Of a stretch of DNA of 64,000 nucleotides, positions 3,277-64,000 are shown piece by piece (the stretch's first letter is position 1; every line of letters begins with the position of its first letter). This DNA is from Vermamoeba vermiformis. Taxonomy: Eukaryota. Made by a program: the position numbers and the translations under genes. Where the stretch lies: contig JBEWZL010000152.1 in assembly GCA_045837725.1 (NCBI GenBank), positions 496,001 to 560,000 of the forward strand, read 5' to 3'. The notes under the pieces are model-generated. The model was given only the letters and a program-made list of their open reading frames with translations, made no database searches and was not told where the DNA came from.

Positions 3277-3389
3277 GGATTAAAATAAATATTAATAGCC
3301 GTTGTGATCACTTTGAGCAAAATGACAAAAAGATCTTCGTTGATCTATTTTTCATTAAACCAACAAAGGAGTGAACATACTGGCCCATC

Positions 3390-5973
3390 ATGTCACGTGC
3401 ATTGAAGCGTATGTTAGAAGAAAAAACCGAGCCTAATAAACAAAAGCCCGTTGAAGAAGAGAGTGAGGATGAGGATGACGCGCCAACCGGTTTCGTGAAT
3501 CCGTTTGACTTGGTGCGTAGTATTATTAAATGACGATAAATAATTATTATAATAATTATGCACCGTAATTGCCGCATAATAATCACTTTCTGTAATTTGA
3601 GAATTTTTTCATAATTTATTTAGTCAATTTGAACTTGATAACGCGTCATCAACAGTTAATAGCAGCAAGCAGTACTTAACATCACATTTATCATAGCTTA
3701 ATCAAGGAGGAGGCAATGACGATGATGAGGACTCGGAAGAAGAAGATCCAAAGCCCGTTCAGCCAGCCAAACCAGCTGCGGCAGTATGTAGTCTGGATGT
3801 GCTCAATTTGAACACTTATTGATTGACTTGCATACTATAGAAGCAATCTGCTAAAAATAATAACAAGAAAAAGAAAAAGAAAGGCAAAGCTAAGCCAGAT
3901 CCACAACCAAAAAGTGAAGAAAAAGAAGAGGACATCGATCAGCTCGTTAAAGAGTAAGATCAAATAGACTTTATATCAGTGCCACTAATATTGCATATAT
4001 AGACTTGGTCTCGAGAATACACGCTCTGAATTAGAGCAGGCTGAGAGTGAAGGACTCGTCGAGAATTTATTGTCGTTACAAGCCATTCACCTCGATGCTG
4101 ATGCGGAAATGAGGAAATTGTTCGGTCCTGGAGTGGTATGTATACTAATATATGCAGCAGTGATTATCATAGTCGTGTTAACAATTGAGTTTTAGATCCC
4201 CAAAGAAAAGCGTGATCCAAGAATTAAGTACGTAACGATAATAATGGCCTATTACGCTGGTCAATCATCCTAAACATATTACAACAGGCGCGTGGCTCAT
4301 AGAAAATCATTGATTATCAAGCCAAGAGAGTTCTGGCCGCGCATGTCGAGTGGTTTGAGTATGGATCTGATCGACTCCAAGTCCGGCGTGAATTACTTCA
4401 AAATTAACTGGAGCAAAGAATACAAAGAGATACAAAAGCAGTTCATTGCCTGTGTTAATACGGGTGATCCAAACACGCTCGGTCAGGTACGTCTCATTCT
4501 AATCCTCCATGCTTTATTTTTTCCCTAATTTGGTAATCAGCTATTGCACGTGCACCCGTATCACATCGACACATTGTTACAACTCGCCGAGGCCTTCAAG
4601 TTTATGGGCGAGTTAGACAGTTCCCTCGACTTGATTGACCGCGCACTGTACGCCTTTGAGTGTTCGTGGCACAATTTGTTCAATCCAGTCACGCACAACA
4701 ACCAGCGATTGGAGTACAAACATCCTGAGAATAGGTATGGCACGCGACATTAACTTAAATTCAACGACTAACATGTTTGCTTAGATCATTTTTCTTGGCC
4801 ATGTTCAAACACGTTCAAGATCTGGGACGGTAATGACAAGATTAATACTAATTTCACGGCATAATATTAATACGTTTACTTTTAGACGGGGATGCAGTCG
4901 CACGGCTTTAGAGTTCTGCAAATTGATGCTCAAACTGGATCCGTCAGATCCGCTTGGCGTGTTGTACTTGATCGACACCTACGCCGTTAGAGCGCGACAA
5001 TACGACTTTTTGATTGAATTGACCTACTCGAAGATGTTCCAAGACCGCTCGTTGTCTTATTTGCCTAACTTTGCCATGCACGTCGCACTCGCCAAATTCT
5101 ACCTCGAAAAAGAGGGCGAAGAGGTAAGCCCAGCAGTGCATGAATTACAATGTAATAACACACTGGACTTCAAGGGCAACACGAACAACAATGCATTGAA
5201 CAAGAAGAACTTGCGCGCGTCCTCGAACAAATTGTTGTCGAGCTCCGAACTGTTGCAGAACGCACTCATGTTGTTCCCGATGATCTTGCCGCCAATGCTC
5301 AAAAAGATGTCCATTAACTCGCTCATGCACCGTGAGGCTGATGGCACTTCCAGCGACGTCATGTTGCACGGCTATTTCACTAGCCCGCCATTCGTGCCAC
5401 CCGCCGTGCAGTATTTAAGTGCCTTGTTCGTCGAGAGAAATGCAGCGCTGTGGCGTGACCCTGATGTAGTCACGTGGCTCAAAGAGAACGCCATCAAAAC
5501 CAAAGTGCGTGCTGAGAGTCAAGATCCAATGGTCGAGAACTGCGCTGTCATCTTGCGCGAGGAGCACGAGACAGTCGCGCCGAATGTTTATCGACACATC
5601 TTGTTGACAGGTACGCATCATACACCCCCGTATCGTATTAATGACACGTGTCACGTTAATTTTTAACCGTGTGTTGACAGATGACAACGAGGTCGTAAAT
5701 TCCTTGCCCGCAGATGTGGTGAACGAAGGCTTCCGAATCTACGACGACGAAGAAGAGAAGGAGTATCGCGTGCAAGACAACAACCAGCGCGGCAACACGA
5801 CTGTGAATGCAATCGGAGCTTTGTTGAGCTCGATCTTGCCTTGGAACACACGACCCACCGGCGAATGGCTGAGCGAGCTGGTGAATCGAATCAACACAAG
5901 CAATGCTGAGGGTGGTGCTGAGAATACGGACAATGCCGATGAGGGTGATAATAATGACTTGCATGAGGACTAA
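3390..5973 (+). CDS. TCF25: TCF25/Rqc1/Nulp1 ribosome quality control protein (multi-exon)
   Basis: Acidic/basic N-terminus with NPFDL; core motifs HPYHIDTLLQL, DLIDRALYAFE, RRGCSRTALEFCKL..LDP.DPLG, LPNFA. Confidence 0.9.
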
Positions 5974-24282: not shown

Positions 24283-27200
24283 ATGATGTCCACAAAATCC
24301 CGGGACTTTCGCGATGAGCTTGCCAAGATCCACCAGCAGCTCAAAAATCAAAGGTGAGTCTCCTTATAGAACGACAAATTTAATTTGCCCTTATACGCGG
24401 GTTATTTTGGCAATTTATCCACCCTGCAAAGGGAATTTTGGCTTGTCTAACTTACAATCCCAATTTAGAACCGAAGACGAAAGATCTCTTGCTTGCATTG
24501 CTCTAAACAATTTGGTAGATATTAGAAGAGAATGAATATAGTATTCAACCAACTAACTGCTAGTAATTTCAGACCCAGGTTCAATCCCGAGAACTGTCAT
24601 CTGAGCATTTCGCCAAGTTCGCAACTGAGCTCTTTAAATTAATCAGTGAACTCATTCACAGTAATAATCAGAATGACAAAATCGGCGGCATTATAGCATT
24701 AGAAGCCTTAATTACGTCTGACACTCTGCCCGATCGAGCGACCTTGATGTTCAATTTACTCTGTCGTGGTGGAATGACCAGCAAAGATGAACGAGTATTA
24801 ACGCTCGCAAGCCAGACGTTGGGACGGCTGGTCCACATTTACGGCCACAGCATCGGAGATCTCATTGACGCAGAGTTAGTTCGGTCGTTAGAATGGCTGG
24901 CCGACCCAAAATCTGGTCACGTGCTCGCTGCACTATTAATCACATCCCAGATTGCCGCCAACGCATCGCTCAACATCTACTTGCATCTGTCACATTTGCT
25001 GGACTTGATTTGGCCCGCATTGCAAGACAGAGATGTGAATGTTCGTGTGGCAGCCAAAGAGACACTTCAAATTTGTTTGCGACTGATCAACGATCGCCAG
25101 TCACCCTCAGATACGCACCATATACAGATGAAGGCGGTCTATGAATCAGCAGTCAAGTGTTTGGAGCAAAGTCATCAAAGGAGCGAACACTTGCACGGTG
25201 CACTACTTGCCCTCAATGAGCTCGTGTTCTACCCCTCGTACTTTTCCGAAAATGACTTTCAACACGTGTGCGACGTTGTAATGAAGCTTTGGGACGCCAA
25301 CAACAGCATGGTACGTGCTCAAGTCACCTCGCTACTCCCAGCTCTCGCCGAACTGCTTCCGCAACTCTATTCTGAACGTCATTTGGCTGCTATCATGAAA
25401 TTGCTGCTGAGTGCGCTTGCACAACGCGATTCTGCTGAGCGCGCACGAGCATTTATAACGATTGGCAAACTATCCCTAGCAGTTCGCAGTCACATGCAAG
25501 ATTACGTTGAAGAAGTTCTCACGGCTGTTCGTGCTGCCGTGTCATCGAAGAGCAAGTCGGTGTTCAAAGAAGCGTTGATCTGCGTATCCATGTTATCTAC
25601 AGCTGTCGGCCTGTCAATGCAAAGATACGCGAAGGAGTTACTGCAACAGATCTTCGGCGGTGGACTGTCACAAGAGCTAGTTGACACACTCACCGCGTTA
25701 TCTCAAAACATCCCCGAGCTATCTTTTGACATACAGTTGCGTCTGCTAGATGCAATTTCTCGCGTGCTAACGAAGAAAAGTCTTTTGCAATCGGGCTCCC
25801 AGTCACGCAAGCTAGACAAGTCAAGCTCAATCCACGACCTCGAACACGATCATAAAACATCATTTTAGCCTTGCATACAGTGGGATCGTTTGCTTTTGAC
25901 CGCGACATTCTCACGCAATTCTCAAATGATATTTTAATCACGTATCTCTCGCACAAGGATACGCAGATACGAAAAGAAGCCTGTTTGATGTGCTGCAAGA
26001 TTTTATCGCGCCTGCCTGCAACTACAACAACCAACGACATTTTAACAAAGCTACTCGAGACAGGCATTGGAGACACAGAGGAAAGCATCCGATCCGCGAT
26101 AATTTTGAACCTCGACACTTCATTTGACACGCTGTTGGCCCAACACGACAAATTAAGTCTGTTATTTCTTGGCCTGTACGATGAATCGCTCGAGATCAGA
26201 GAGCACATCGTCCGTATCTTGGGTCGTTGTGCCGCCAGAAATCCTGCCTACGTACTACCAGTGTTACGAAAGCGTTTGTTGGAGCTTCGTGACGAGCTCG
26301 CCTATAGTCGAGATAGCGTAACGTGCGAACAAAGCGCTCGTCTGCTAGCTTGTTTAGTTGGTGGTCCTGAACTCTTTGCAGAAAGCTCCTATGACAGCGC
26401 GCAACATGAGGTCGACTGGTCGCACGAGAGAGGCCTTTACAGCCCAGTGCATCATCGACTAGTAGACCCTTACGTGGATTCGTTGCTACGTGTGCTAATC
26501 AGGCGAGCTAAGGATTCTGATCCGCGCACTATTGCTTCCGTCTTACGGGCAATATCGGCCGTAGTCTATCAAGCACCATTAGAACTCACTGCTGAACACG
26601 TCGAAGAGCTTTTCAATCTAATTGCACTCATACTTGAAGATCATTCATCCACATTGAAGCGAGTGATGGCTCTGAAGTGTCTCGCTGTCGTGGCACAGTT
26701 CACTAGCCCCGCAATGAAGTCCTTACTGCACACTTCCAAAGTGTACGAGCAAGTATTGGACATGCTCAAGTCGGATCATTTACCAGCCATAAGAAACATC
26801 ATTACGTCTGTAATGGGCACTTTTGGAGCTGTAGATTCTCAATGGCACCGGCGGATGCAGCTTGAAGACCAAAAATCCAACGAGACCACTGTGTCGTTGC
26901 GTGGCGTGTTCTCTAATGCAGAAGACAATATCTATGCCAGAACTGTAGTTGACGCCCTACTGCGAGTCATCAGCGACCCATCTCTCAGTTCACATCATCG
27001 CCAAGCATTACAAGCACTCGTGTTTCTGTTTGACAGCCTGGGTCAAGGATGCGCTCAATTTTTCCGAGCAGTACTCGATGCCCTACTCCTTCTGATACGC
27101 AACAGTGACTCGCTCCTTCGTGAAATTACATTGCAACAGCTCGCCGGCCTAATTGCAGCAATTAAAGAGAGTGTACGCGAATACTTGCCCGAGATAATGT

Positions 27201-30200
27201 TGCTGATTGGCGAGTACTGGCAAGTGCATTCAATGCAAGTGCTACTGCTGATCGAAGTAACTGCTTCGTCTTTGAACGAGGAGTTCGAAGCCTACATGCC
27301 TCAGATTACTCCGTACTTACTCGCCATTCTGAAAGAGCCCTCACATCAGCGACTTGTGAAAATCAAGGCTTTGCATTGCGTCGAGTTGTTAAGCAATTCC
27401 GGAGCATTCCAGAGCTTGATGAAGCAGCTCTACGTAATTATCCCTGCGATTACATCGCTATTCACAACGTCTGTTCCATTTGACGTGTCACATGAAGCAC
27501 TTGCAACGGTAGACAAATTAGTACAACGTGGAGACTTATCTCGATATACCTCTAGTATCGTGCAGCCGTTAACTCGAGTGCTAAGCAGCAGACCCGAGAG
27601 ACACGACATTGCCATGCAACTCTTGTGTTCATTAGCTGCTCAATCGCGACAGGCTTTCATCGTCTTCATTCCATCAATCAGAAACATCTTGAATCAACAT
27701 AACATCGTGCATATCGCTTACAACAAGCTAGAAGAGCGCCTCTTAGCAGGTGACATTGAAGACGAGGAACAATCGTCAGAGCTCAATCAACCTGAAGTCG
27801 ATGACGCTCCCAGAGAGTACAAGAAAAAGCTGAAGGTCAACGAGCAACTCTTGCGCAGGGCTTGGAACACATCATCGAAGTACACGGCAGAGGACTGGCA
27901 CGAGTGGTTCAAACGCTTCAGCGTCGAGCTGTTGCGTGAATCACCTTCACCTTCAGTGCGCTCGTGTATTGTTCTCTCCGACTACAATCCCATTGTACGA
28001 GAACTCTTCAACATTGCATTTCTGTCGTGTTGGACATCACTGTCGTCTGAAGACCGAGAAGAACTCATGTCACATCTGTTGAAAGTGTTTCACTCCGACA
28101 CAGTGCCAGGCGATGTTCTACAAACACTCCTTGACCTGGCAGAGTTCATGGAGGACAACAGCAATCCGCTACCGATTGACGTGGAGGTGTTGATTCATCT
28201 CACCGAACGCTGCCGTGCCTATGCCAAATCACTTCGCTACCTCGAGACTGAGATCAAAGCATCACCCAATGCTAACGTGATTGAACGTCTCATTGGTGTC
28301 CACAACAAGCTCGGATTGCCGGAGGCGTCTAACGGCATTCTCAAATTTGCACAACAAACATACGAAGTGCAACTCAAAGCTTCATGGTACGAGAGGCTTG
28401 GGCGTTGGGAGAAAGCTTTGGCACATATTGACGAGAACGACAGTTCGCTGGAGGCAACACTGACACGAGTGCGCTGTTTAAAGGCCCTCGGTGAGTGGCA
28501 AGAGCTATCGAAAGTCGATGCAGAAAGGATTGGCCACGATTTGAACAATCAACGCAGCAGACTATTGCACCAATGGCACTAGCAACATCATGGGCACTTC
28601 GAGACTGGGATGCAATGCGCAACTACGTTCAAGTACTTCCTGCAGCACATCTCGAAGGGGCGTTCTATCGCGCCGTATTCCACATTCACCAGAACGAGTT
28701 CCATGAAGCTCATAAACACATCAACATTGCGCGAAGTCTGTTAGGTCCAGAGCTGAAAGTGCTGCTGACTGAGAGCTATCAACGAGCGTACCACGTTCTT
28801 GTGCGCTTGCAGCAACTTACAGAGATGACAGAAGTGATTGACTACAAGCAAAACAGTGCGTGCATTGATAGACAGACTGCTCTGTTACACAACTGGACTG
28901 AGCGATTGAAGAGCTGCGAACGCGATCCTGATGTGTGGTATCAGATCTTATCCGTACGCTCGCTGGCTGTGGACGCGAACAAATACGCGGATGTGTGGCT
29001 CAAGTTCGCAGCGCTGTGTCGCAAAAACGATCGTCATCATCAGGCCCATGATGTGCTGCGTTCACTACTAGGCTGCGACCTCACTCTTGACGTGTCTGAA
29101 CAAACGCTACTTCAAGCCCCAAAGATTTCTCTTGCGTTTACAAAGCTTCTCTGGACCGAGGATAAGCGCCCTTTGGCCTTCAAATACTTGCAGCGGCTAG
29201 CTGTGAATTATCAAGGAGACTACAATCTGCAAGCACGCATGCTCGTCAAATTGGGACAGTGGCAGACCAGTCTTCAAGATGGACTGCGCGAAGACAACTT
29301 ATCGAGCGTGCTGGCAACATTCAAGGCTGCAACAGAACTTGATCCAGACTATCAACAAGGATGGCACGCTTGGGCCATGGTCAACTTTGATGCAATTGCT
29401 TACCACGAAAATCAGCTGGGCCACACAAAAGATGCCAAAGCAGTCGCTGACAGCATCAAAGCACACCTCGTGCCCGCTGTCACAAGTTTTTTCCGTGCAA
29501 TTTCACTGAGTCAAGGCAACGCGTTGCAAGACACGCTACGTCTCCTGACACTCTGGTTCAAATACGGTGCCAGCAAAGAAGTCGAGAATGCTCTGCTCGA
29601 AGGATTCGACATGTGTCCGATTGAGACTTGGCTGCAAGTGATACCTCAACTCATAGCTCGCGTGCACTCCCCTGTCGAAGCTGTTAGACGTCTGTTGCAC
29701 GATTTGATTGTTCGGTTAGGGCGTGAGCATCCTCAAGCGCTCGTGTTCCCTCTCACGGTGGCCAACAAGTCACCCAGTCAGCAACGAGTGCTTGCGGCTC
29801 GTGAAATTATAGAACGAATGCGTGTTCAAAGTGCAAAGTTGCTAGACCAAGCACAACTCGTCAGCAACGAACTGATTCGCGTCGGATATTTGTGGCCAGA
29901 GATCTGTCTCGATTCGATCAGAGAGGCCCACATGTTGCTAGCAGTACAGGACGTTGATGGCGCGCTCGACGTGTTAGGGCAAATGCACGGTGAATTTCTG
30001 AATCCGAAGACGCATTTTGAAGTTGAGTTCTTGCAGGAGTATGGTCAAGCGTTGGATCAAGCATTGGCGTGGTGTCAAGTAAGTGTTGACTTTTCATCCT
30101 CCAATAAGCTCAACTAACAACCGGACAGAAATTTGCGAGTGAAGGTCACAGAAGTCACCTGAGCAATGCGTGGACTCTGTACAAGCGTGTTTACGACAGA

Positions 30201-31571
30201 ATCCACAAGAAATTGTTCCAAACATTCGACCTGAACCAAACGTCACCACAACTGTTCACAGCGCACGATTTGGAACTGGCAGTGCCGGGCAGTTATAAGC
30301 CACATCAATCTATCGTTACCATCGCCAAGTTTCAGTCGCAACTCCACGTGTTCCAGACTAAACAACGACCTCGCAAACTAGCGTTAATGGGCTCTAACGG
30401 CACCAAGCACAGCTATTTGTTAAAGAGCAGAGAAGACTTGCGATTGGACGAGCGAGTGATGCAGCTCATCAGGCTCGTCAACACGCTGTTGAAGGGCGGT
30501 CACAAGACACAGCACAAGAAGAGATCGATCAACACGAATAAGAACCTCTCGCACCTCTCCATTGCGTACTACGCTGTCGTGCCCCTCTCACCAGACAGTG
30601 GACTGATTGGCTGGGTGCCGCACTCGGACACATTCAATCAACTCATTCTGGACCACCGACAGGCACACAACATTTCAGCTTACGAAGAGCACCAATTCAT
30701 CTCTCAGCGTGGTCCTTACGACACATTGCCGCCTCAAGAAAAGTACGAGGTACTGAAGGAAACTTTCCAAAACTATTCGCCCCAAGACCTCGCACAACTC
30801 TTGTGGTCGAAGAGTCCTAGCAGCGAAGTGTGGCTCGAGCGCCGCACCAATTTTACTCGGTCACTCGCAGTCATGTCCATGGTCGGATATGTGCTCGGTC
30901 TCGGTGACAGACACTTGTCCAACATGATGCTCGACCGATACACCGGCCAAGTGATTCACATTGACTTTGGCGATTGCTTTGAAGTAGCCATGCAGCGCGA
31001 CAAATTCGCCGAGACTGTACCATTCCGATTGACACGGATGTTCGTGAATGCAATGGAAGTCAAAGGTCTCGAAGGCATTTACCGCGCCACAAGCGAGACT
31101 GTGATGACGTTGATGCGCGAACACAAAGAGTCGTTGATGGCGGTGCTGGAGGCCTTCGTGTACGATCCACTCATCAATTGGCGCTTGATGGACAACAGCA
31201 ACAAGTCGCGCAGTGAAGACCAACAGAGCGACGAATTCACACTCGATTCTAACGAGCACATCAACTCGCCCTTTTCGCTCGAAACATTTCCTGGTCACTC
31301 GCACGAGAGGCGGTCCAAGTCGCTCGATTTAGACTCTCCATCTGAAGACAACACACCCAAACAGAACAACAACATTGTGGCAGCACAAGTCGGGGCACTC
31401 AATCAACGCGCAGTCGCAGCCATCAATCGCGTAAATCAAAAGCTCTCTGGCCGTGACTTCGTTGAGAACACGACGCTGAATGTCTCCGATCAAGTGACAC
31501 GTCTCATTCAACAAGCGACTTCCCTCGACAACTTGTGCGTCATGTTCAGTGGCTGGTGTCCGTATTGGTAG
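24283..31571 (+). CDS. TOR: Target of rapamycin (TOR) kinase, divergent; two frameshifts in this assembly (~25855 and ~28511)
   Basis: HEAT N-terminus (DKIGGIIALEAL, RNPAYVLP.LR), FAT (LLRESPSP, LQDTLRLLTLWF), FRB, PIKK kinase (LLKSREDLRLDERVMQL, GLGDRHLSN, HIDFGDCFE), FATC (GWCPYW*). Only three introns seen: two at the 5' end and one at ~30079-30128. Confidence 0.93.
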
Positions 31572-42073: not shown

Positions 42074-45000
42074 ATGTCGCTAATCAACGCCACAACGGCT
42101 TCTCCTAGAGCCATGAGTAGCCCGGAAATTCGCTCAGAATGGTTCCTAAACGTATCTGAGATCGTTTCGGCGAAAGACATCACGGTAAGCAGCATAACAA
42201 GCGAGATCTACTGGCGGAAGAGACTTTCTGACCTTTTTAAAATAGTCTCTCGCTTCGCTTTGGGAAGAAATATTCCCTAAGCAAGCTACTAAATGGACCA
42301 AGCACAGAAAAAGCACTCAAAATTTGGAGCCTATTTATAAAAAGTTAATCGAAAAATGCCGAACAGCGGTTCACGATCCGAAGGTAACAATAAAATCTTA
42401 AATATTTAAATCTAATGGCGAGGCTAAATGCACATAAAATAGCCAGATGCGAAAAATTTTCAAAATATTATCGAAAATTAAATCATTTTCGGTTGTCACT
42501 TCAGGGCGTATTTGAGACTAACACTTAGTACGAAATAGGCTGAACAAGAGCTCGATAAGATTATTTTAGAGACAGAAGATTTGTGCCTGTACGGTGTTGT
42601 TCGCGCCATCCACTTTCGCGTCCACTTGATTGAGCTCGACAAAGAAGTCGAGGAGGTCCGTATAATTACCCTCAATATTCACAATTGGCTAATTTTATCA
42701 CTCTAGGTCGAAGTGGTGCCACCAAAGGAGATGTCATTGCCCGACATTTTGGAGTCCAAGCTGATCTTGCAAAGTTACTTGGACTATTTGCGCAACAATG
42801 GACCGGACAAATTCGGAGAATTCGTCAACAACACCTTGCTGCGCTTAATTTCTACCGTGCACCCTAATGAGACCGAACGTACGACCAACTTGATGCACTA
42901 CACGAGCGTGTTGGAGAAGTACTTTGAGTGGAAGAAAGATTACCAGTCCATTCAAACACTGCACACTCGCTCAGCTGAGTACAAGATTCGTCGTGAGAAA
43001 CTCAATCAATTGCGACGAGCCATCAAAGCTGAAATCGAAGGATTATGGTACGTCCTATTCAATGCCGTATAGCATAGTATTAATTATGTTATATTTAATT
43101 AGGCAAAGCAATCAGTTGCGCAGAGATCCTATCCCTGTGCAAAGCGAGGCACGACGTATTTTGGAGCGCTATCGTGTCATCATCAAAGCGTTTCCGACCT
43201 TTGTCAAGTTCGTGAAGCACTTGGCTCGTGAAGCGTTCTGGCTGTATCAAGCTAGTGTGTACTGCCAATCCGAGAAGTGGAAGCGCACCTTTGAAGGCAT
43301 CTTCAAGACTGGTCGTGGCAGTCGTAACGACAAGCTGCGTGCCATCAAAAAAACTTTCACTGCCTTGGACATCCGCTTGACACCTCCTAGAATCGCCGCT
43401 CCGATCATTACTTTCGGTACTTGGAAGGGTATGCCGCTTTCGTTTTATTTATTGGCCAATAAATAACTAACACGTGGCTCAGGTGGTGACAGAGACGGTA
43501 ATCCATTCGTCGTTGCTTCATTCACAAATCAGACTTTCGTCGATCAAAAAGAGTTCGTGTTAGAACGATACATCAAGATTCTGCGTCACTTGATCGACAA
43601 GCTGACACCTTCAATTGACCACATTTCTGCTTCCGAAGAGTTGTTGAACTCCATTAAGAAAGATCAGAAATCGTTCCCTTATGTCAGTGACATCAAGCCG
43701 CATGAGCCTTACCGCTGCAAGATTAGATACATTCTGGAGAAGCTCGAAAACACGTTGACACGTGTCAAGGAAGTCAAGAAACGTGCCGGAGAAACTACCA
43801 AGCCATTGCTTGGTCAAACTCTTGTTGGTCCTTCGGGCTACAACAGCTCCTTACAATTGTTGAGCGATATCGACGTTATCTACAATTCCTTGGTGCAAAA
43901 CGGAGGCAAAGCTCAAGGTCGTAGCTCGGTGCAAGACATCAAGATTTTGGTCGAGACTTTCGGCTTTCACATGGCCTCCATTGATTTCCGTCAATTGAGC
44001 ACCAAGAACTCATCTGCGTTGAAGGAGTATTTGACCGCAATCAGTCACCCTCAAGCTGCTAAGTTCGACCAGTTGGACGAAAAAGAGAAGCAAGCAGCTC
44101 TCGTGTCATTGATTCGCTCGGAGTACATTGAAATGGACCCCTACGCAATCGCTTCACTGTCGAAGATTTCTCGTGACACGCTCGAGACCATGCTGATCTT
44201 TGCTGACGCTGCTCGAACTGATCCTAAGTAAGAATATCAATCTTCACTGCTTGTGCTGATCTAACTGTGTAACAGAACCACGGGCAAGTTCATTATCAGT
44301 ATGTGCCAGAATGCTAGTGACGTGCTGACCATGCTGATGTTAATGAAACTTGTCGGCATGTTGATCACCAAGGACGGTGAGATCTCTTCGTGCGATTACG
44401 ATGTCACTGGTCTGTTTGAGACTGTCGACGATCTCAAATCTGCTCCTCGTATTATTGAGGACTTGATGGCCATTGATTTCTACCGCGATTATGTGGTCAA
44501 GTTGCGTGGTGGCAAGCTCACCGTCATGATGGGCTACAGTGACAGCGTTCGTGACGGCAGCTCTTTGGCAGCTGACTCGCAAGTCATTCGCACCGCGTTG
44601 TCCTTGAGAAACCTAGAAGAGGAGTTGAACCGCAAGTACGACACGCAACCTCGCTTGGAGTTCATTTACTACCGTGGTCGTGGTGACACCATTCCAAGGT
44701 AAGCAAGTGCCACATTGAATAAAATAACATGGCGTTAACCTATCATCGTGCAGAGGCTTTGGTGGTTCAATTACGAAGGCCATTGGCTCACAGCTGATTA
44801 CTCGTCGTGCTGAGGATCACACCGAACAAAATCGTTACTTGCGTGTCTATGCTTCAGTCCCCAGCGCAGTACATCACTTCCACTCAGTCTACTCTGCGCA
44901 CATCTCGTCGCAAGTTAATGTAAGTCCAAATAGTTACTATCATTAGGGTAGGACTAATTGTTACGCTAGGAAATTAACTTTGACATCAATCGCTACCAAT

Positions 45001-53859: not shown

Positions 53860-55568
53860 ATGAAGCTAATTATATTTATACTTTGCGCTTTATCAGTCTA
53901 CGCTCAAGAATGTGTACCAGGTTACACTTACGACGCTAGTTTCAGTGGTTTAAACTTCACGTGCTCCATATCGGGCAGTTGGACTTTTATTCGTGGTCGT
54001 CAGACATACTTCAACGGCTGGCTTGAAGGTCCAAACGAAGGACCTTGCTTGTTCTACTCATCCGGATTACCATCTCAAATTTCAATAACCGTCAATAATA
54101 ATGCGTTTGTGGACGGAAAACAATCGTACGCTCAATATTGCTATATTACCAATTTTCTAATTTATTTTTAGAACGTGGTCTTGCTACGGAGGTCATTCGT
54201 TAGTGTTGGATGTGCCCGCAGATTTACCTTTAGGTGAATCTACTTGGACGCTCATTGTTAGTCGTAACAACGTGGTCAATTATACAATGTGCTCGCATAT
54301 TCGCATCATAGACGTTCCCAAGGTGCCTCGAAATCCAGTTGACAAATCGAATCTAACGGTGCCCGCTCTCGAACTATGGGAGGCACATATGATCAAGTAT
54401 GCTGATAAATATTGCCAGATTAGTGGATGTTGTTGGGAAGGCGCATCGTGGTATTATGATGGAGTTAAAGTGTACCATCAAATCCGCGATTACTTTGGCA
54501 ACGATTCGTACATACCTTGCATCGAATCCCATCGAGACTACTTCGAATATGTTCTTTCTACTAAAGGTGCGTACCATGAATGTTCTCTGGATCTCATCTC
54601 GAGATTTGTTTTTAGGAGGATTTGGTGGTTGGAGAGTTTTTCCTCATGGCTTGTACCTCGAGTATATTCGAACCGGAAACGAGTCTTATAGGGACGGTGT
54701 CTTGTTCTTGGGCAACAATTCAGCGTTGGCGAATAGCGGAGGGGACGCATCTGCAGACAATAACCGAGAGACTGCCTATCTAATCCATACCTACAATATG
54801 ATGTCTAAATTAGGTGTGGATGTTCCTAAGAGAGAAAAAGCGATCCAAAACGCCATCGGTCACGTCGATCAGTGGTTCATCTCCAAACAACCGTTCTTGA
54901 TCCAGTCTTTCATGGTGGGCTTGACTTGCGACGCTTTTATCGAGTACTGGGAAGAAACTAAAGATGAACGAGTCCCTTGGATAGTCCAAATTGCACTTGA
55001 AGGGTAAGTGTCAAACAAAAGATCGTAATCCGTTGTACTTTTTAATTGTTTCTTCCAGACTTTGGGATGTATTTTACAACGAGACTGACCGAACATTGAA
55101 TTACAATACCGAGTCACTGACATCGTACTATGATCTGAACTTGATTCTCGCACACGAATTTATTTGGTTGTGGGCTTATACCGGAAACACTACGTATCGG
55201 GACCGAGGAGATATTTTATTCGAAACTGGCGTCCAAAATGCCTACTTGGGTACGTAAATCAATACTTATTTTCAAGCGGAGTTAACAAATTTTTTAACAG
55301 ATGGTGGAAAACAATTCTCGCAAAACTACGTAAGAATGAAAACACACTCACTACCATGTTCTAATTTTTTTTAAAGAGAAATTCGTTCAAGTTTGTTAAG
55401 TGGAGACAAGATCCGGATTTGATATCCGGTGCAGCAGGACCAATTTCGCCCTCTGTCTCACCCTCTGGCAAAACTGTTAAATCAAGTGCAGGAAAGAGAG
55501 AAATCAGTTCTGTTCTGGCATTTTCTGCCTTAGTACTCGTTTCTTGCTCCCTTGTGTTAATTTCTTAG
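53860..55568 (+). CDS. Secreted, probably GPI-anchored protein with a bacterial-like alpha/alpha-toroid domain
   Basis: Signal peptide MKLIIFILCALSVYA; beta-rich N-domain; helical domain WYYDG..VY..I.DY, FPHGL, RETAY, FMVGLT..A.I.Y, DLNL..A....WL...TG...YRD.GD.LF..GV, KQFSQNY; hydrophobic C-terminus SSAG...SVLAFSALVLVSCSLVLIS*. Confidence 0.65.
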
Positions 55569-55577
55569 ATCGAACAC

Positions 55578-55680
55578 TGTAACGTGTAAGGGCAAAGCCT
55601 AGCTGGATATATATACGAATATTAAAACTAATTAAATAAATAAAAGGGTTAAACACGATGACGTGTTATGTTTACTATCA
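55578..55680. repeat. Possible short LTR or transposon terminus (TGT...CA)
   Basis: Starts TGTAACG 9 bp after the upstream stop, contains TATATATA and AATAAA, and ends ..ACTATCA, followed by GTGCGAGCC. No second copy in the window. Confidence 0.3.
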
Positions 55681-55749
55681 GTGCGAGCCGTAATTGACCA
55701 AGGGTGAATTAAGTGCGGAACTGTGCAAAGGAACGAACAGACGTACGAT

Positions 55750-56160
55750 TCACACTGACAGGTTCATTATTTTAGCCAAAAATGATTTGCCATTATCTGA
55801 CTGTAGTATTTCAGGGAACTGAAGCTCATTCAAGAAGAGTTCGAAGATGTAATGCACAATTGGCTCTACCTCTTGAGTTGGAAAGCACTTGGCCCAGGCA
55901 AATTTCGAGAAACAATCAATGATAGTGAGCATATGGCAGTCGCCTGTGATGGGGTCTGCATATTCGAAGCTAGTGAAGTCGATTTGAAGCCATTCCAAGA
56001 TCCGATCAGCAGTTATTGGCTTAGTTGGTGGCTTTGGAATTCCAGTACATATTTTCATCATGGCACAATGTTCACACTTGTCAATGAATGTGTTGACATC
56101 GTTGGTAAGTCCAACCCAATAGTATTTGGCTTGTAGTTCGTAAATCATGGTGTTTAGGGC
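55750..56160 (-). pseudogene. Truncated Ginger/gypsy-type (rve) integrase fragment
   Basis: KYYW.GL..DV..FI..CEHC (half of the HHCC finger), LQIDF, LTIIDCFSKFAWA, ILQSDNGKSF. The N-terminal His pair and the third catalytic residue are missing. Confidence 0.85.
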
Positions 56161-56414
56161 CAGGGCTGGCCACTTTTTTAAAATAAAATTGTACTTCAAA
56201 CATGGGTAACCTTGTTCTTGGTGCAGCAGGAGGGCGTCAGACCGTCTGACGGCCTAGGGATGGGGGGTGCGTCAGACGGTCTGACAGCCTCAGGTGCAAA
56301 GGCATTGCACATGCACCTGCACCCTCAGTCATGCACTGCAACAGCAAAGGGTGCAGACGGTCTGACGGCCTTGGACAGGGGGGGGGTGCGTCAGATGGTC
56401 TGATGGCCTAGGGA
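56161..56414. repeat. Putative DNA-transposon left end: CAGGGCTGGCCA terminus plus four palindromic GTCAGAC-N-GTCTGAC subterminal repeats
   Basis: The integrase homology stops at ~56160. Repeat copies are at 56236, 56271, 56353 and 56390, each followed by (G/A)GCCT, and are arranged as two pairs each joined by a G-run+TGC. Confidence 0.6.
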
Positions 56415-56720
56415 TTAAACGATAACTATTGTAAAATCAAATAAATGCGTTATAGATTATTTATAAATAATTAACTATTTAATCTATCGTAATATTGTGT
56501 TAAAATGATAGTCACTCATGGATCTGACCGCCGAATCTAGGCAACGGCAGATCGCGAAAAAATTTATTCACTAAAAAGGGACCTGTTTTAAAGACTTACA
56601 TCCTAAGCTTAGACTTAGCAGTTTCCAAAATATGACGCTTATTTGAGGTGTTTGTGCGGAGAATCGGCCCTGAACTTTTTGATTTTGGATCAAAGACCGA
56701 CGTAGTCAACCACAAGAAAA

Positions 56721-57928
56721 ATGACTGACCGCATTGTTTATGATTATGTTAATGTTCCTTATGGGAAACCTATGGAAGAGACGATTGATTTACCTGCCCT
56801 GACGGAAGAGGATTTAAAAGAGTATCGGACCGTAACGACAAGGTAATAAATAATTTTAAATAATTTAATATTGGTAAAATATCAATCTTCCGTTGACCCA
56901 ATGAAATATTATGATTTGCCAATTATTATTTTAATTCTTTAATTTTTTTTAGCACCGTTTTCAAGGACGATTACGGCAGTACTGCCATAGCTTTTTTCCA
57001 AGGGGTGCTCGAGAAAAAGACTGTCGATGACGCCAAAAAAGCTGCCCAGTCGTTATTAAAAAATTTAAAGCCATCTCAACCTGGGACTAGCGCGCATACA
57101 GGCGAATGGCGAAAGAGCAGCGATTGGATATTCAAAACCAAAGACACAGTCAACGGTGAAGAGTACTACAAACGAGTTAACCGAAAGCCCTTTTGGCAGA
57201 ATGCTGCCACAAAAAAGATCGTCAAAAAAGTTGATAACTACTTTTCAAGAACAGCGAGCGATTTATGCGAGGCATATAAAAGAATCAACGCAGAACGCAT
57301 TTACGGAGGCTCGTACCTCATGTGCGTTATCAACACTGGGGTAGTTGGGCCTCATTACGACGAGAAAGACGAAATTGAAGGACTTTGCTGTGTCGTTCCA
57401 ATGGGCGTATTTGATGGTGGCGACCTGGTGTTCCGACAACAGAAGCTTCGTTTTCAAGTACGAACAGGAGACATCATCTTCTTCCGCTCTCGCGAGTTGA
57501 TGCACGAGAACTTACCTTGCACCGGAGAGCGATATTCGTTAGTCTTCACTACTGACCACGACTCGTTTACGGAATTTGGTCAACCTGCTCGTCAGTACAT
57601 GCATTGGAAGCAACCAAAGTTAAACAGTCACGCCACTATTGAAGCACAAGGATTCAAACCCGAAGACGTACCCGAGTTACGCAAAACAAAGGTTGTTGTT
57701 ATCGACAAGGTGTACACAAAACTAACGCGTGCAAATACACCACGAACAAAATTTGGTACGTTAAAGCTACCCTCACAAGATGGAAACCCAAGGGCACCAA
57801 TTTCTCTTCGAAAAAATGCCAAGAAAAAAAAGAAGGCAACGAAGAGAAAGAGAAAAGAGATCGACGATGACGAGAGCCATTCTGAAGAAATATTGCTCGA
57901 AACAAAAAGACGGCGTATACAAAAATAA
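56721..57928 (+). CDS. TET/JBP-family 2OG-Fe(II) dioxygenase with basic C-terminal tail (2 exons)
   Basis: IN....PHYDEKD (HxD), LCCVVPMGVFDGGDLVF, GDIIFFRSRELMHENLP (distal His), RYSLVF (RxS 2OG-binding); NLS-like KKKKKATKRKRK. The intron (~56843-56952) keeps the frame. Confidence 0.82.
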
Positions 57929-57929
57929 T

Positions 57930-59270
57930 TTATTTGTTACGATAAAAGAAGAACGATAATAAATTGTTAATTTCCATTTGGTATTGATTACGAGTGTAGA
58001 GCTCTTTCATATAATAAAATAAATCCAAATTATTCGGCAAAGTTGACAAATTAGCTGATGCTAGTGGAAGCGAGGGCAGCAATTGGGGAGGTAATGAAGG
58101 TTGAGGCATGCTGAGCGACTGGGCATTATTTTGACTTTGCAAGTCGGGGGTCTTAAGCGGTGGCAACAGGGCTGGCTCATTGTCTACTGACCTCGGCAGA
58201 GGTAACAATGACTCCTCGTGACCCTCCTCTTGCTTTGTCTCAGGAGGAGTTTGAACCAACTTCTTTTTTTGCTTGTACCGCCTCTTGGTGAGCTTATATT
58301 CACCTGATGCATCATCGCTTATAGAACGATCAACAACAACACGTGTCTTCTTTCTTCGGGTCATAGATTTTGACTTCGCAGCTGCCGTTGGACTTGCCGT
58401 CTTTTCATTTTTTCTTGCTCCTTGCGATCTTGTCACCCGTCGTTCAGGGCCAGGAGTGCTTTTTTGCTCTACTTTCTTTGTTACTCGGGCCTTTTCTTGT
58501 TTTGAGGGTGGTACTACTTCCTCTTTAGAATGTGTTCGTTCTGGTGAAGACTACTAGGATTAAAAATTTGTTAATTAATTTGAGCTTACTTTATGTGTGA
58601 CTTCTCCAGACAGAAATTGTTGCCAAATTGTCGTCAATTGTTCGTTTTGCTCGGTTGGGATTTGTGCCGGGTCTGAAAATTTTCTGAACTGCTTAACGTC
58701 AAGCAAACACACCTCGTCAAACTTTTCTGTTGTTGCAACTATCCTTGGACTTAAACCCTTTCAAACCGTAGTTACAAATTATAAAAATAATTAAAATAAT
58801 TGTTAAGTAATCGTTCTTACCCTTTCAATTGCTAAAATTATATATGTAGTGCTTCCTTCATTCAGTAGAATGCGATTGCCAGAACCAAGAGCAATTTTAG
58901 AGTTGGGAAGTAAAACAGAACCGTAGTAACGACCATTGATTGCACTTCCATTGTAGCGTGCAGTACTATGAAGTTCGTCTATCAAAGTTTAGCATGTGGC
59001 AACCCTATTATTTGCTTGTACCGCTATCTTCATCCTTTTTCACGTTGGATTTCTCTTCATCTAGTTTTTTTATTGATAAATTTGGCTTGGTTTCCTCTTT
59101 CAAAGTAGTTAAATCTGCTTCTTATATAATATATTAATTCGTCTAGTAGGTAAAAACATGTAACTTTTTTTTACAAGCCAGATCTTACCGAGAGCAACCT
59201 GAGTACTTGTTGGTAAATCATCATTCTTAGTAGTTTCTTCATTACTTATTGAGGACTCATCAGCACTCAT
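57930..59270 (-). CDS. Spliced gene of unknown function: acidic N-terminus, small beta-rich domain, K/R-rich and Pro-rich low-complexity C-terminus
   Basis: Five exons join in frame through GT-AG sites: MSADESS...|EADLTT...|DELHSTARYNGSAINGRYYGSVLL...IILAIER|GLSPRIV...|SSPERTH...FFFYRNK*. Confidence 0.62.
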
Positions 59271-59482
59271 TGTTATGGTTGTGTGTATCCCAATCAAAAC
59301 GTTACTATCATAAGTAGTTTTACTTTGCCGACATGCATTTTCGAAGCTTCCTTTCCTTTTTTGGAAATTCAACGAGCAATTTTTTCCCTGCTTTACCAAG
59401 CCTTCGTTAGCATTAAAATCAGGTAGAACCACCACAACATACTTTGGAAAGTGATATACTTGCAATATAATATCAAAATAAT

Positions 59483-62400
59483 ATGGCAGATAATATACTA
59501 GGTAAGATCTTAAGAGTTGCTGTTCGGATCTTGATTTCTAAATATTTTTTTACTTCGGCACATAACTTATCTTTTTTAACAAGATTAATTAAGTCTATAT
59601 CTTACCTCTGTTGTGTAATTGGCTAGGCAATTATGCAATGTCGGATTAAATCTGAGCATTTTTACATTAGGTATCGAAATCGAAGGAGCGACAGTAAGTT
59701 TTAAGCATTACGCACATGATTTTTAATTTATTTAGCCCATTCCAAGTGATTTACAAGGGTTTGTATGGGGATCCGGAGGTTGAACTATTTTGTTACAAGC
59801 ATAATTCTAACCGGTGTACAGGAATTATCAACTTGTGTACCATGGAAACATTGTGCTTTATATTTAAACAAGCCCTAGTGGTATACAACATGGTAGTTGA
59901 TTGTGAATTTTTTCGACTATTGCGCAACACTCTGGATGCCGTTACATTTGATCAACTACACACCAGTAAATTACCAATAATTCAGTTTTTCCAAAAGCTG
60001 TGTCCTACTTGGGTGCCAGGAAGATACGTTGGCGTAAATGAATTACTAAATCCTTTAATCAAATCGGAGCTTGTTTTCAAGACCAAATTTGAGCTTTGCT
60101 TCACCAAGTCAGTCAACTGTGATTGTGGCCAAGAAGTTCAAACTCTCTTTAGCAACTCTCTGGTGGTATCTGAAGATTACTTGAAACAAACAAATTCAGT
60201 TACTGCATCAATAAGAAGATCAATGTTTCGAGAGCAAAACTTAGCAGGTGTCTGTTGCTTTTGTCACTCACCAAGGCACTTGAAAGGTAGATAAACTGTT
60301 TCAAAACTAACTTTAACCAACCTTCTTTAGAATCAATAACAAAGCTTCCAGACTTGTTGGTTGTGGAGTTTGACACTGGACATCAAAACTATCTGTCTTC
60401 TACATTTGATATTGAACAAATTGTTCGCTTAGAAGATGGAGATTTTTCATTATTGAAGGCATTGAGAATTGATGGGAATCATACTACTGGATTCTTTCAT
60501 AAAAATGGTCGAGTGCATGTTTATGATGGCTTAAAAAATGAGGGTAAAGCAATGGAGCTGCAGTACTCTAAAATGCACTATCTACCCTTGGAAGATTTTA
60601 AATATATAACACACTTGATTTACATTCGTACTGCCAATTTTGCCAAAGGTAATAACATTAAATTCAAGCTTACTACTCTGTTGACATGCTAATGTACTTC
60701 TTAGACTTGGTTCTTTCAGATAGCAGTCAATTACTATTCTCACAAATCAATGCAGCAAAAAAACTCACTCCCCTTGGAGATAGTGGCTCAACCTCCAATG
60801 AATTGGCAACTGTCGAAGCTACCTCATTATTTAGTAGAATGAATCAAACAGTCAATAACACAAAGAGTAGCTCTTTGGCTAAACAATCCATGTTGAAAAA
60901 GAAGTTAACCCAAGAACATGCCTCAAAAAGTATGTGCATCTACCGTTAACTATAGAGCATAATGCTAAATACTGCTTTAGGTTTACGTTTTAAGTGCTGC
61001 ACAAATGAGTGCTGTTCTAAATTTGATCTATTCCAAGTCGTACATTATCGAAACCAATTACTACAAGACAACCATTTCAATTCGAACTTTATTAAATCCT
61101 ACATTCGACAACATGCCAACAACGAAACTATTTCTTGGCAATTTGGAGGGTTAGAAGTTTGTCAAGCAGCATGGTACACACTATATGGATTTTCGTCAGT
61201 TAAATTTTTTAAAGCAAAAAAAGAAGAATTACAAGGTAAACTCTGCATTACTTGAATTGTCATTAATATTGTTTAGGGTCTTATCAAGTGCTTCACGGGA
61301 ACTATTTTCGAGAATATCCAAAGCCAAAGAGTATTAGTGTAAGCGCATGGCTTACAAACTACTGTGAAAAGTATGGAGATTATGTTCCTACAATCAATGA
61401 AATACATTTAAGTGGCAATTTAAGGTAAGTAACGTTACAATTTGCTGTAAGCCTTTAATTGTATGTGCAAGTTTACAAGAGTGGTATGAAGAGTATCATG
61501 CTGAAGCATCAGTCACTTTGGGTGACGTAGCAAGTTTTAAAACCTTTTGCTATGTTCGTAATTCCCAATTTTCGCATGTGAAGTTTCCAAAAGTTACTAG
61601 ACTGGGCAAGTGCTCCATTTGTGTTTCAAATAGAAAATCAAGATTACTTTGTAGTAACCTTGAAGACATCATATCATTGAAATCTGAGTTAAAGGCACAC
61701 TTTAGCGTTACTGCCGGAGAAAAACAACAGTACCATGGCAGAAAGATAAAAGCCAGGCAATATCCAACTGCAATTTTGTCATTTATTAGTGATAAAACAA
61801 AAGATGTAGAAATTCCAACTACCAACCCTCTACCAAAATCATGGACAAGAGTAAAAAGACATCCAGTTGGAATTATGGGCATTTTAAATCATTCGTTAGG
61901 AACCAAAGAATTTGTTTTGTTTTCCCCAGAACAGTGGACCTTGGACTCAAACTTTTTTCTAACAATTTTACATAACTCGATTATGAACTCTCTAAAAGCT
62001 TACAAGGCAGAAAGGCCCAGAGTTTTATATATACAAACAGATAACTGCAGTGCAGAGTCAAAAAACCAGTATTTATTAGCATATTTGGCTCTACTAGTCG
62101 AGTACAAAATTTTCGATGAGATTTACTTCCACACTCTAATTCCTGGTCATACTCATGAAGATATAGACCAACTATTCAGCGTTCTGCACCAAAAATTAGA
62201 AACTGCTACTATTGAAACAATATCACAACTAATCAACTTCATGGAAACAAAAGTTTTCTCAAGTCGTCCAATTGTAACATGGATTCGAGCTGTGTATGAT
62301 TGGAAACAATGGATGTCTGGTTTTTGTAACAAAATATCTGGTCACAAATCACCACATGCTTTCTTAATTAAGAATGGTTCTGACTCTAAGGTGCACCTAT

Positions 62401-63135
62401 ATTATAAAAAGTACTCTCAAGATATGGAATGGTTGGGAGACCATAATCAAAATGTCATTTTCAATTCAAAACCTGCAGCATGGCCAAATATCCTTCATCA
62501 AAACCAGTTTGATCATGAAGCAATTAAAAAGATGGTAGATCAATGCAGGTCACACATCTCGGAAACGGTAAGTTTAAAACTTTGAAAAGCAATTAACAAC
62601 CTTTAGAGTGTTCAATGGTGGCAACATATTGATAAATCAGTTAAAGTCCTACCTTGTTTGTCAATTACACCCAATCCATTTGCTGATTTTCAAATATCTT
62701 CTGTTGTTCAACATGAATTCAAAGTTGTTTCAACACAAACACCAGTTATAAAAGTAACAAAACCTAGGCAAAAAAGAAAGCCAGAAGGTTTGTACTGTTT
62801 ATTATATAGAACGGTTCTAATCATTTCTAGATTGGCCTACAGGAGCTGTGAAAAAGCTTCGTTCTGCAAAAGTAAAGGATGATTTGTTGGATTTATTGGC
62901 AAGCCTTAGTAAATCCTTTGAAGCTAGTCTGCATTATCCTATTCCAACTCTACAACAATCTCTTCGCAACTTACTAGGGTTTGGATCTCCATTTATAACC
63001 AACATTTCAATGAACAAAGAGTTTGAAGAAGAAATTGGATCACTACGGTCAAGAATTGAAGCACTACAGTATTTACATACACTGTTAGAAGATTATGACA
63101 GCATTGTAAAAGATTTGAAGCTCAAAAAAAAGTAA
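59483..63135 (+). CDS. Sola1/DUF7869-like DDD transposase with N-terminal USP-like cysteine peptidase domain and Cys-rich region (multi-exon, apparently intact)
   Basis: Peptidase: HNSNRC, CDC/CCFC Zn ribbon, ITKLPDLLVVEF, GNH, YDG. Transposase: CC...CC, VCQAAW..LYG, HGN, W....GD..P, LGKCSIC, FISD, LYIQTDNCSAESKN, GHTHEDIDQLFS, YDWK.W. All introns from ~60288 onward keep the frame; the first exons are tentative. Confidence 0.82.
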
Positions 63136-63203
63136 ATTTGCCTTTATTTGGTTTTACATTAGTTGCCGTTAATGTTCAACGACTTTCGGTTCAAAGAGTA
63201 AAT

Positions 63204-64000
63204 TTACAACTTCGAAGCAGTACTAGGTGGGTCTAATTTAAATACATGACAGGCGGTCTTCCACAAGAACTTGTCTTTGGCATCCGACGAGAGGCCTAAA
63301 GTATCGACATTTTTCAATGTCTTCTCAAGATTCAATTGCGGAAAATTCGTGCCAAACATCACTAATATAACCTTATTAGCACTTGTATAATATTGTTTAT
63401 ATTAAAAGTCGTACCTTTGTCAGATCCATAAGTCTTCATATAATGAACTAATGCTGGCGGGAAGTATTTAGGATCATAAGCGGAAGTATCTATAATATTA
63501 TAAAGAAGCGTTAATAAATTATTGTAATTTCCATATAAGGATAAAATACGTACCAATATAAACGTTTTGATGCTTCCAACAAACTGCAATCATTTCTTCG
63601 GTCCAAGGATATCTAATAAACAATAATAAGACCCCATTTCATATATATATTATATATATGTTACTAACTTACCCAAGATGACCGCCAACAATTTTCAATT
63701 GAGGAAAAGTTAGCGCAACTTCGTCGATGTACGGGATCGGACGACCAGTCTCGGAAGGCATAAGCGGCCCTGTATGCCCCACTTGACAACAAAATGGTAT
63801 GTCTAATTCGATGCACTTGACATATAACGGATAATACAACTTGTCATTGGGAGGAAGTTTCCACATCCTGATCGCACGAGAGAAAACTCATTAATAAACA
63901 CGAAATCATCCATTAGGATATAATTATGAGAGTTCAATGCATAATATTTACCATGGAACAACTCGAAGAGCTTTAAAACCGTATTCTTTGACGCATTTTT
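63204..64000 (-). CDS. Amidohydrolase_2-family protein, 5'-truncated by the window edge, ending in PTS1 (-SKL)
   Basis: PPNDKLYYPLYVKCIELDIPFCCQVGHTGP, FPQLKIVGGHLG, IDTSAY, MFGTNFP, ...PPSTASKL*. Confidence 0.88.

Follow-up and report, generated by a model that had tools for sequence, protein, structure and literature searches.

In the 5-methylcytosine (5mC) oxidase NgTet1, D234 forms a hydrogen bond to the N4 amino group of 5mC, N147 reads the cytosine O2, and the two residues together set the preference for cytosine; the mammalian TETs carry Asn in place of D234 (PMC4678852). F295 (Y1902 in TET2) makes the stacking contact with the flipped base, whose N3 is contacted by H297 (H1904) (PMC4678852, PMC11804724). 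In fungi, Tet genes are borne by DNA transposons of many superfamilies (PMC12730594). Here we describe a small Tet gene at 56721-57928 of a 64,000-nt stretch of Vermamoeba vermiformis DNA (contig JBEWZL010000152.1, positions 496,001 to 560,000 of the forward strand), which as a whole we call the window. By profile and predicted fold, the gene encodes a TET/JBP-superfamily dioxygenase with an intact catalytic apparatus, and we hold it somewhat probable that the product is a functional 365-amino-acid (aa) Fe(II)/2-oxoglutarate enzyme of the NgTet1 type, which belongs to a distinct clade and is encoded in a putative element linked to a DUF7869 gene.

An initial annotation of the window, made from the letters alone, had proposed a minimal TET/JBP-type dioxygenase at this position, and the database searches bear the proposal out. 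The query throughout was the translation of exon 2 (P0001, 324 aa), whose residue numbers are converted to those of the full protein by adding 41. An exhaustive search of 1.84 billion representatives returned 504 relatives at E<=1e-3, 54 at <=1e-10 and 6 at <=1e-30, and Pfam Tet_JBP is matched at E<=1e-3 by 47 of the 53 aligned relatives (best 3.6e-16). The family profile made from 53 sequences, with the window protein as the first of them, matches NgTet1 (E 5.9e-15 and 1.6e-14) and CcTet (4e-10), and the next family after TET/JBP is prolyl hydroxylase at E 0.0098. These matches run counter to the outcome that the annotation had named as refuting its proposal, the lack of any TET/JBP profile hit. 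Structure prediction gives the same family. The AlphaFold2 model computed with the family alignment has a mean predicted local distance difference test score (pLDDT) of 80.5 and exceeds 90 over the core, at P0001 1-200. Searched with Foldseek against the PDB, it finds NgTET1 at 4.8e-13 (template modelling score 0.64 by target length), CcTet at 1.8e-9 and CMD1 at 4e-9; the best 21 among the matches listed are all NgTET1, CcTet or CMD1, and folds of the AlkB and prolyl-hydroxylase types first appear at ~2e-7. Viral TET/JBP proteins head the search of BFVD, and Tet_JBP is carried by 24 of the 30 nearest Atlas clusters, which come from Basidiomycota, Ascomycota and phages. A repeat homologue search with the family alignment returned 9 proteins only. 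Neither CXXC nor DUF7869 is fused to the Tet domain in any of ten long relatives, of which eight carry Tet_JBP, one DUF6532 and one no domain. In the clusters of three close Tet relatives (P0005, P0007 and P0009), an identical protein occurs on up to 7 contigs, the longest of 659 kb, which could indicate that the genes are multi-copy or that a single organism was sampled repeatedly.

As judged from the alignments, the iron triad HxD...H and the RxS arginine are intact in the Tet protein (Table 1). Across 53 sequences N127, D136, H184, R193 and S195 (P0001 numbering) are invariant, and H134 and D139 are found in at least 90%; within an 18-sequence subfamily N127, H134, D139, H184, R193 and S195 are invariant, with D136 in at least 90%. 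The annotation had also described a compact catalytic domain that has a basic tail and neither CXXC nor a Cys-rich insert, and this description holds. HxD and the second His are 48 residues apart, and therefore the core has no insert, and a Pfam search found no CXXC or Cys-rich domain in the protein. The exon 2 product has five Cys residues, all within residues 1-224, and the tail is free of them. Among the last 100 residues of the protein, 28 are Lys or Arg and 14 are Asp or Glu, and pLDDT falls below 50 at P0001 240-305, which predicts disorder; such a tail may act in nuclear targeting or DNA binding.

The gene model comprises two exons and one intron. The first ATG after an in-frame stop is that at 56721, and exon 1 is required because exon 2 offers no in-frame ATG suited as a start. 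We infer the splice 56842|56953 from the reading frame, the splice signals and the family profile, which starts at residue 29 of the spliced protein and is continuous over the exon junction. Joined by script, the exons give a coding sequence of 1098 nt that translates to 365 aa with a single terminal stop. The gene is intact, with an open spliced frame and its catalytic residues kept. Contigs from run X3 lie over exon 2 at 56992-57186, 57266-57440 and 57502-57903 (word depth 2.7-4.5; ~770 of 976 nt), and none lies over exon 1, the intron, the upstream DNA or 59276-59700. This run is RNA, as three GT-AG-type joints are seen in the gene that adjoins Tet. The pattern fits transcription of the Tet gene; on expression, a point raised by the annotation, the support extends to exon 2 and not to exon 1 or the junction.

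Motif variation was counted in the 130 of 153 family sequences that have a recognisable HxD...H...RxS and at least 10 residues after the Arg. The annotation regarded HYDEKD as atypical, which we do not find: Asp at H+5 (HxDxxD) occurs in 126 of the 130 relatives, the middle residue is variable (R 23, Y 22, I 19, K 17), and NgTet1 reads HKDNLD in the profile alignment. Because HxDxxD is near-universal in the relatives and present in NgTet1, HYDEKD is normal for non-metazoan Tets. RYSLVFTT, the other motif that the annotation singled out, is indeed unusual. In an ungapped register from the invariant Arg, V293, F295 and H297 of NgTet1 correspond to V197, T199 and D201 of P0001, which places Thr at the position of F295/Y1902 and Asp at that of H297/H1904. 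Residue R+6 is Phe in 59 of the relatives, Thr in 28, Tyr in 11 and His in 10; at R+8, 57 have His and 34 Asp. Of these four residues of the NgTet1 5mC pocket, the equivalents of N147 and D234 (N127 and D139) are kept and those of F295 and H297 are not. R224, the other stacking partner in NgTet1, sits in an insertion specific to that enzyme and is not present in the family of the window protein.

A quick maximum-likelihood tree places the window protein in a clade of 10 rows, all with Thr at R+6 (support 97 in the Shimodaira-Hasegawa-like approximate likelihood-ratio test, SH-aLRT), whose sister pair has Phe. The tree covers 93 of the 153 rows, which are unnamed representatives, and carries SH-aLRT support only; a row was kept if it had a recognisable motif, at least 60 residues ahead of HxD and at least 10 behind the Arg. 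Thr at R+6 was gained more than once, with at least two changes forced by well-supported branches, and the Tet relatives of Rhizophagus irregularis and of the heterolobosean Acrasis kona sit in other clades. These data suggest to us that the protein is part of a distinct and as yet unnamed clade of small NgTet1-type enzymes with an altered base pocket. The substrate cannot be read from the sequence. We rank 5mC as most likely, with limited confidence, on the grounds that the protein retains N127 and D139 and that, of the enzymes with solved structures, NgTet1 is its closest relative; the base preference or the range of products may depart from those of NgTet1.

Downstream of the Tet gene and on the same strand lies a multi-exon gene whose largest frame contains a DUF7869 domain (Pfam PF25273, 177.7 bits, E 2.5e-52). 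The Atlas clusters with this domain are mostly from arthropods and nematodes, and in one of them 11% carry the DDE transposase family PF07592, so the DUF7869 protein is likely a transposase. The same gene order is found at a metagenome locus, L002. There, a homologue of Tet (40% identical over 180 aa, E 2e-36) precedes, by ~1.3 kb and in the same orientation, frames that match the DUF7869 gene of the window (33.8 bits for DUF7869 against a Pfam cut-off of 26). The comparison comprised 38 loci, namely 6 short metagenome loci and 32 viral loci with distant matches (22-46% identity). Tet followed by DUF7869 was seen only in L002, that is, in one of the two close relatives that have downstream DNA (L001 and L002). 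In the window, both genes are bracketed by a candidate terminal inverted repeat, which is the best inverted match between 55000-60000 and 62300-64000 and agrees at 20 of 22 positions. None of 300 dinucleotide shuffles of both 500-nt flanks, which were picked after the match had been seen, reached 20 of 22, the maximum being 18. Within the 64-kb window the repeat motif has these two matches only; it was not found in L002. A single 6.7-kb element with inverted repeats at its ends, 56424-63164, appears to contain both the Tet and the DUF7869 gene. Earlier work on Kyakuja-Dileera-Zisupton reportedly dealt with transposon Tet genes in fungi. In the literature we found no mention of DUF7869 by name, and among the titles listed on kyakuja, Tet_JBP or PF12851 none concerned a DUF7869-linked or non-fungal transposon Tet, supplements being outside the scope of this search. 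What the locus adds is a probable partnership between Tet and a kind of transposase that had not been connected with it before.

The two genes differ in composition. The annotation had remarked that the Tet gene keeps many CpGs and the neighbouring transposase gene does not, and the contrast itself is real: the ratio of observed to expected CpG is 1.32 for Tet and 0.42 for the DUF7869 region (59698-62900). The Tet value is only at the 93rd percentile of 1256 same-size windows. That of the DUF7869 region is far lower than any of 1130 non-overlapping windows of matching size, whose minimum is 0.91. The anomaly is thus depletion of the transposase gene and not enrichment of Tet, because only the DUF7869 value lies outside the distribution in the window. 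For comparison, the whole window stands at 1.07, mTOR at 1.04 and host genes at ~1.0-1.3; the retrotransposon integrase fragment upstream of Tet has 0.49. In L002, Tet (508-1416) has 1.08 against 0.53 for the DUF7869 part (2418-3685), so that the sparing of the Tet gene recurs in two distant loci. Codon use follows the same division. GC content at third codon positions (GC3) is 0.46 in Tet, with 17 CGN to 6 AGR codons for Arg, which resembles mTOR, TCF25 and phosphoenolpyruvate (PEP) carboxylase; the DUF7869 frame has GC3 of 0.30, 3 CGN to 10 AGR codons and CpG of 0.41. The depletion fits CpG methylation of transposons by the host, a mark that a Tet enzyme could act on, and its restriction to transposons suggests methylation by the host of transposons and not of gene bodies. 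An excess of TpG plus CpA was considered as a deamination signature and rejected as uninformative, mTOR having the same value of 1.30.

By homology, the enzyme would flip a 5-methylpyrimidine out of duplex DNA into its beta-helix core and hydroxylate the methyl group of the flipped base, most probably 5mC, with the basic tail supplying nuclear targeting or affinity for DNA. By analogy with the fungal DNA transposons that carry Tet, it might remove the methylation marks that silence the element.

Several observations weigh against this account, and we consider them together with the alternatives. The Tet protein alone scores 13.9 bits (E 0.032) against Pfam Tet_JBP (PF12851), under the cut-off of 34.9, although a gathering score is an operational threshold and not a biological feature, and its sole match among PDB sequences is CcTet at E 0.63. 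In addition, no read or contig crosses exon 1 and the splice junction, and the raw RNA runs X17, X18 and X19, labelled as the same species, gave 0, 1 and 0 matching reads, a result that we rate as no test. The sub-threshold score and the missing coverage would fit a decaying or inactive copy, or a 2-oxoglutarate oxygenase whose target is not a nucleic acid, but we regard either as very improbable: the frame is open, all iron- and 2-oxoglutarate-binding residues are intact, the confidence of the model is high, TET/JBP outranks every other oxygenase family by profile and by fold, and RNA-derived contigs lie over exon 2. The evidence for an element meets objections too. In L001, the ~1 kb that follows the Tet homologue contains no DUF7869, which leaves L002 as the single further locus in support of the linkage. 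An unrelated spliced gene in the opposite orientation, with no counterpart in L002, parts Tet from DUF7869. The repeat is short and AT-rich, and with test flanks chosen post hoc the evidence for mobility is thin; no target-site duplication was recognised besides TTAA near each arm, and the window contains no second copy. The host-like composition of Tet beside the atypical DUF7869 gene argues against one co-evolving mobile unit, and no methyltransferase was found among the 29 window frames scanned against Pfam, which make up a minor part of the window. The NgTet paralogues of Naegleria are thought to serve host DNA-modification biology, and the Tet gene could likewise be a resident gene with such a function in a transposon-rich patch, between the integrase fragment upstream and a DUF7869 element downstream. 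Its host-like codon use, GC3 and CpG, the host-like gene in between, the lack of a target-site duplication or second copy, and L001 would all be accommodated. We nevertheless consider a resident gene doubtful, since the gene order recurs in L002 even though the Tet proteins are only 40% identical, the inverted repeat encloses both genes and was not equalled in the shuffles, and capture of Tet by transposons has a precedent in fungi (PMC12730594).

The base pocket raises a separate objection, which concerns the substrate. With T199 and D201 and no R224, the protein would have neither a stacking aromatic residue nor an N3-contacting His, and activity on 5mC cannot be assumed. The enzyme might act on DNA with another main substrate, such as thymine (as in JBP, giving 5-hydroxymethyluracil, 5hmU), N6-methyladenine (6mA) or N4-methylcytosine. 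Substitutions at H1904 and N1387 of human TET2 shift its activity toward thymine, and D234 of NgTet1 has been aligned with an Asp of TbJBP1 (PMC11804724); in phage relatives, T and 5mC are oxidised to a similar extent (PMC13229309); and a structure of CcTet with 6mA DNA exists (7w5p). We think a substrate other than 5mC rather unlikely all the same, given that the protein retains the counterparts of N147 and D234 (N127, which is invariant, and D139, found in 90% or more of the sequences), that the nearest solved relative by both profile and fold oxidises 5mC, and that the CpG-specific depletion of the neighbouring transposon DNA fits 5mC in the host. The two questions can also be joined. The segment 56424-63164 would then be a Tet-carrying DNA transposon outside the fungi, with a transposase type (DUF7869) that has had no link to Tet genes, its altered-pocket Tet would act on a base other than 5mC or give other products, and the CpG contrast would reflect methylation of the element that spares the Tet gene or is locally erased there; we offer this combination as a tentative proposal. 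The reading that we favour remains a functional NgTet1-type dioxygenase of a distinct clade in a putative DUF7869-linked element.

Table 1. Features of the window around the Tet gene and of selected genes elsewhere in it (aa, amino acids)
Feature	Position	Strand	Remarks
Candidate left terminal inverted repeat	56424-56445	+	AACTATTGTAAAATCAAATAAA; TTAA 4 nt outside; ~275 nt before the Tet ATG
Tet gene, exon 1	56721-56842	+	40 codons plus 2 nt; family profile reaches its last ~12 residues
Tet gene, intron	56843-56952	+	110 nt; GT..AG (GTAATA...TTTTAG); 17% GC; predicted
Tet gene, exon 2	56953-57928	+	TAA at 57926-57928; double-stranded beta-helix catalytic core plus basic tail
HYDEKD	57353-57370	+	P0001 134-139; Fe(II) ligands H175 and D177 of the 365-aa protein; D180 corresponds to NgTet1 D234
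Second Fe(II)-ligand His	57503-57505	+	H225 of the 365-aa protein (H184 of P0001); invariant in both alignments (53 and 18 sequences)
RYSLVFTT	57530-57553	+	P0001 193-200; RxS Arg (presumed 2-oxoglutarate ligand), Ser, Val, then Thr at R+6
Asp at R+8	57554-57556	+	Directly after RYSLVFTT
Basic C-terminal tail	57626-57925	+	Mostly disordered (predicted); contains KKKKKATKRKRK and KRRR runs
Convergent gene	57930-59275	-	Basic, Pro/Lys-rich low-complexity protein; between the Tet and DUF7869 genes
Introns of the convergent gene	58551-58589, 58757-58819, 59121-59188	-	39, 63 and 68 nt; CT..AC joints in X3 contigs
DUF7869 gene	~59716-63135	+	Multi-exon, CpG-depleted; outer limits approximate; DUF7869 domain ~61857-62423
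Candidate right terminal inverted repeat	63143-63164	-	AACTAATGTAAAACCAAATAAA on the minus strand; 8 nt past the last frame of the DUF7869 region
Integrase fragment of a long-terminal-repeat retrotransposon	55750-56253	-	rve 32.4 bits, Integrase_H2C2 29.2 bits; upstream of Tet
TOR kinase gene	24567-31571	+	Four long frames
PEP carboxylase frame	43467-44231	+	144 bits

The DUF7869 gene looks intact, with GT..AG introns at 61236-61276 (41 nt) and 61425-61471 (47 nt) that restore the frame. Its frame has no match among PDB sequences, and a single-sequence fold reached a pLDDT of 42.4 and was not used in the fold search. A kinship of DUF7869 to Zator and IS630-Tc1-mariner, to which the PF07592 members of one Atlas cluster and a reported link between Zator and TP36 would point, is a lead only. 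Upstream of the domain, the plus-strand frames at 59698-60949 contain Cys/His clusters (CDCG...CCFCHSP) and a stretch GNHTTGFF...VYDG, and have no Pfam match; they may form an N-terminal zinc-binding or protease-like part of the gene. The convergent gene between Tet and DUF7869 is transcribed and spliced. Its protein belongs to no Pfam family and has no homologue in L002. Its stop lies 2 nt from that of Tet, so that transcripts from both genes are likely to overlap at their 3' ends.

The interval from the integrase fragment to the candidate left repeat holds, at 56229-56415, four copies of a 33-nt unit around the palindrome GCGTCAGACGGTCTGACGGCC, pairs of which form inverted repeats. Elsewhere in the window, the kinase/FATC part of TOR is 47-56% identical to each of the 120 homologues among the matches listed, and slime moulds, chytrids, animals and plants score alike, which indicates a host lineage that databases sample poorly. 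To our knowledge, phosphoenolpyruvate carboxylase is absent from animals and fungi, and its presence here helped to set aside an animal host, which the matches to Ig, SKICH and HECW_N had at first suggested. The other genes include TCF25 and an NmrA-like gene, together with Pfam matches to Ig, SKICH and HECW_N; very short introns are a trait of the source genome, and Rfam has no match within the window.

The small Tet-like enzymes found in protists and fungi serve as useful tools and shed light on the evolution of DNA demethylation. This unstudied clade naturally varies two of the base-contact residues of Tet enzymes, at which mutation turns human TET2 from 5mC toward thymine (PMC11804724), so that it amounts to a cheap natural experiment on substrate choice. 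If the link to DUF7869 is true, transposons that carry a demethylase would extend beyond the fungi and to a further type of transposase.

Of the known systems, NgTet1 (PDB 4LT5, 5CG8, 5CG9) is the best match to the window protein by profile and by fold. Both are small single-domain proteins without CXXC, Cys-rich region or insert, and they have in common HxDxxD, the residues equivalent to D234 and N147, V293 and the RxS arginine. They differ in that identity in the structural alignment is only 16-17% and that the window protein has Thr for F295 and Asp for H297, no R224 insertion, and a long basic C-terminal tail. CcTet of Coprinopsis cinerea (PDB 7VPN, 7W5P, 8JKK) shares the superfamily and the fold, with the profile and Foldseek scores given above, but it is larger (430 aa), reads HRDTSG without Asp at H+5, and has Phe at R+6. 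Metazoan TET1-3 share the catalytic HxD...H...RxSLVF core; unlike them, the window protein lacks CXXC, the Cys-rich domain and the low-complexity insert, and has Asp for N1387, Thr for Y1902 and Asp for H1904. In its setting, the gene resembles the TET/JBP genes of fungal transposons (Kojima 2025, PMC12730594), where a small Tet likewise stands by a DNA-transposase gene in a putative inverted-repeat-bounded element and an anti-silencing role has been proposed; here, the transposase is of the DUF7869 type, the host is not a fungus, and the element is a candidate only. Small Tet enzymes and transposon-borne Tet genes are therefore already known, and what this locus would add to them is a clade with an altered base pocket and a partnership with DUF7869.

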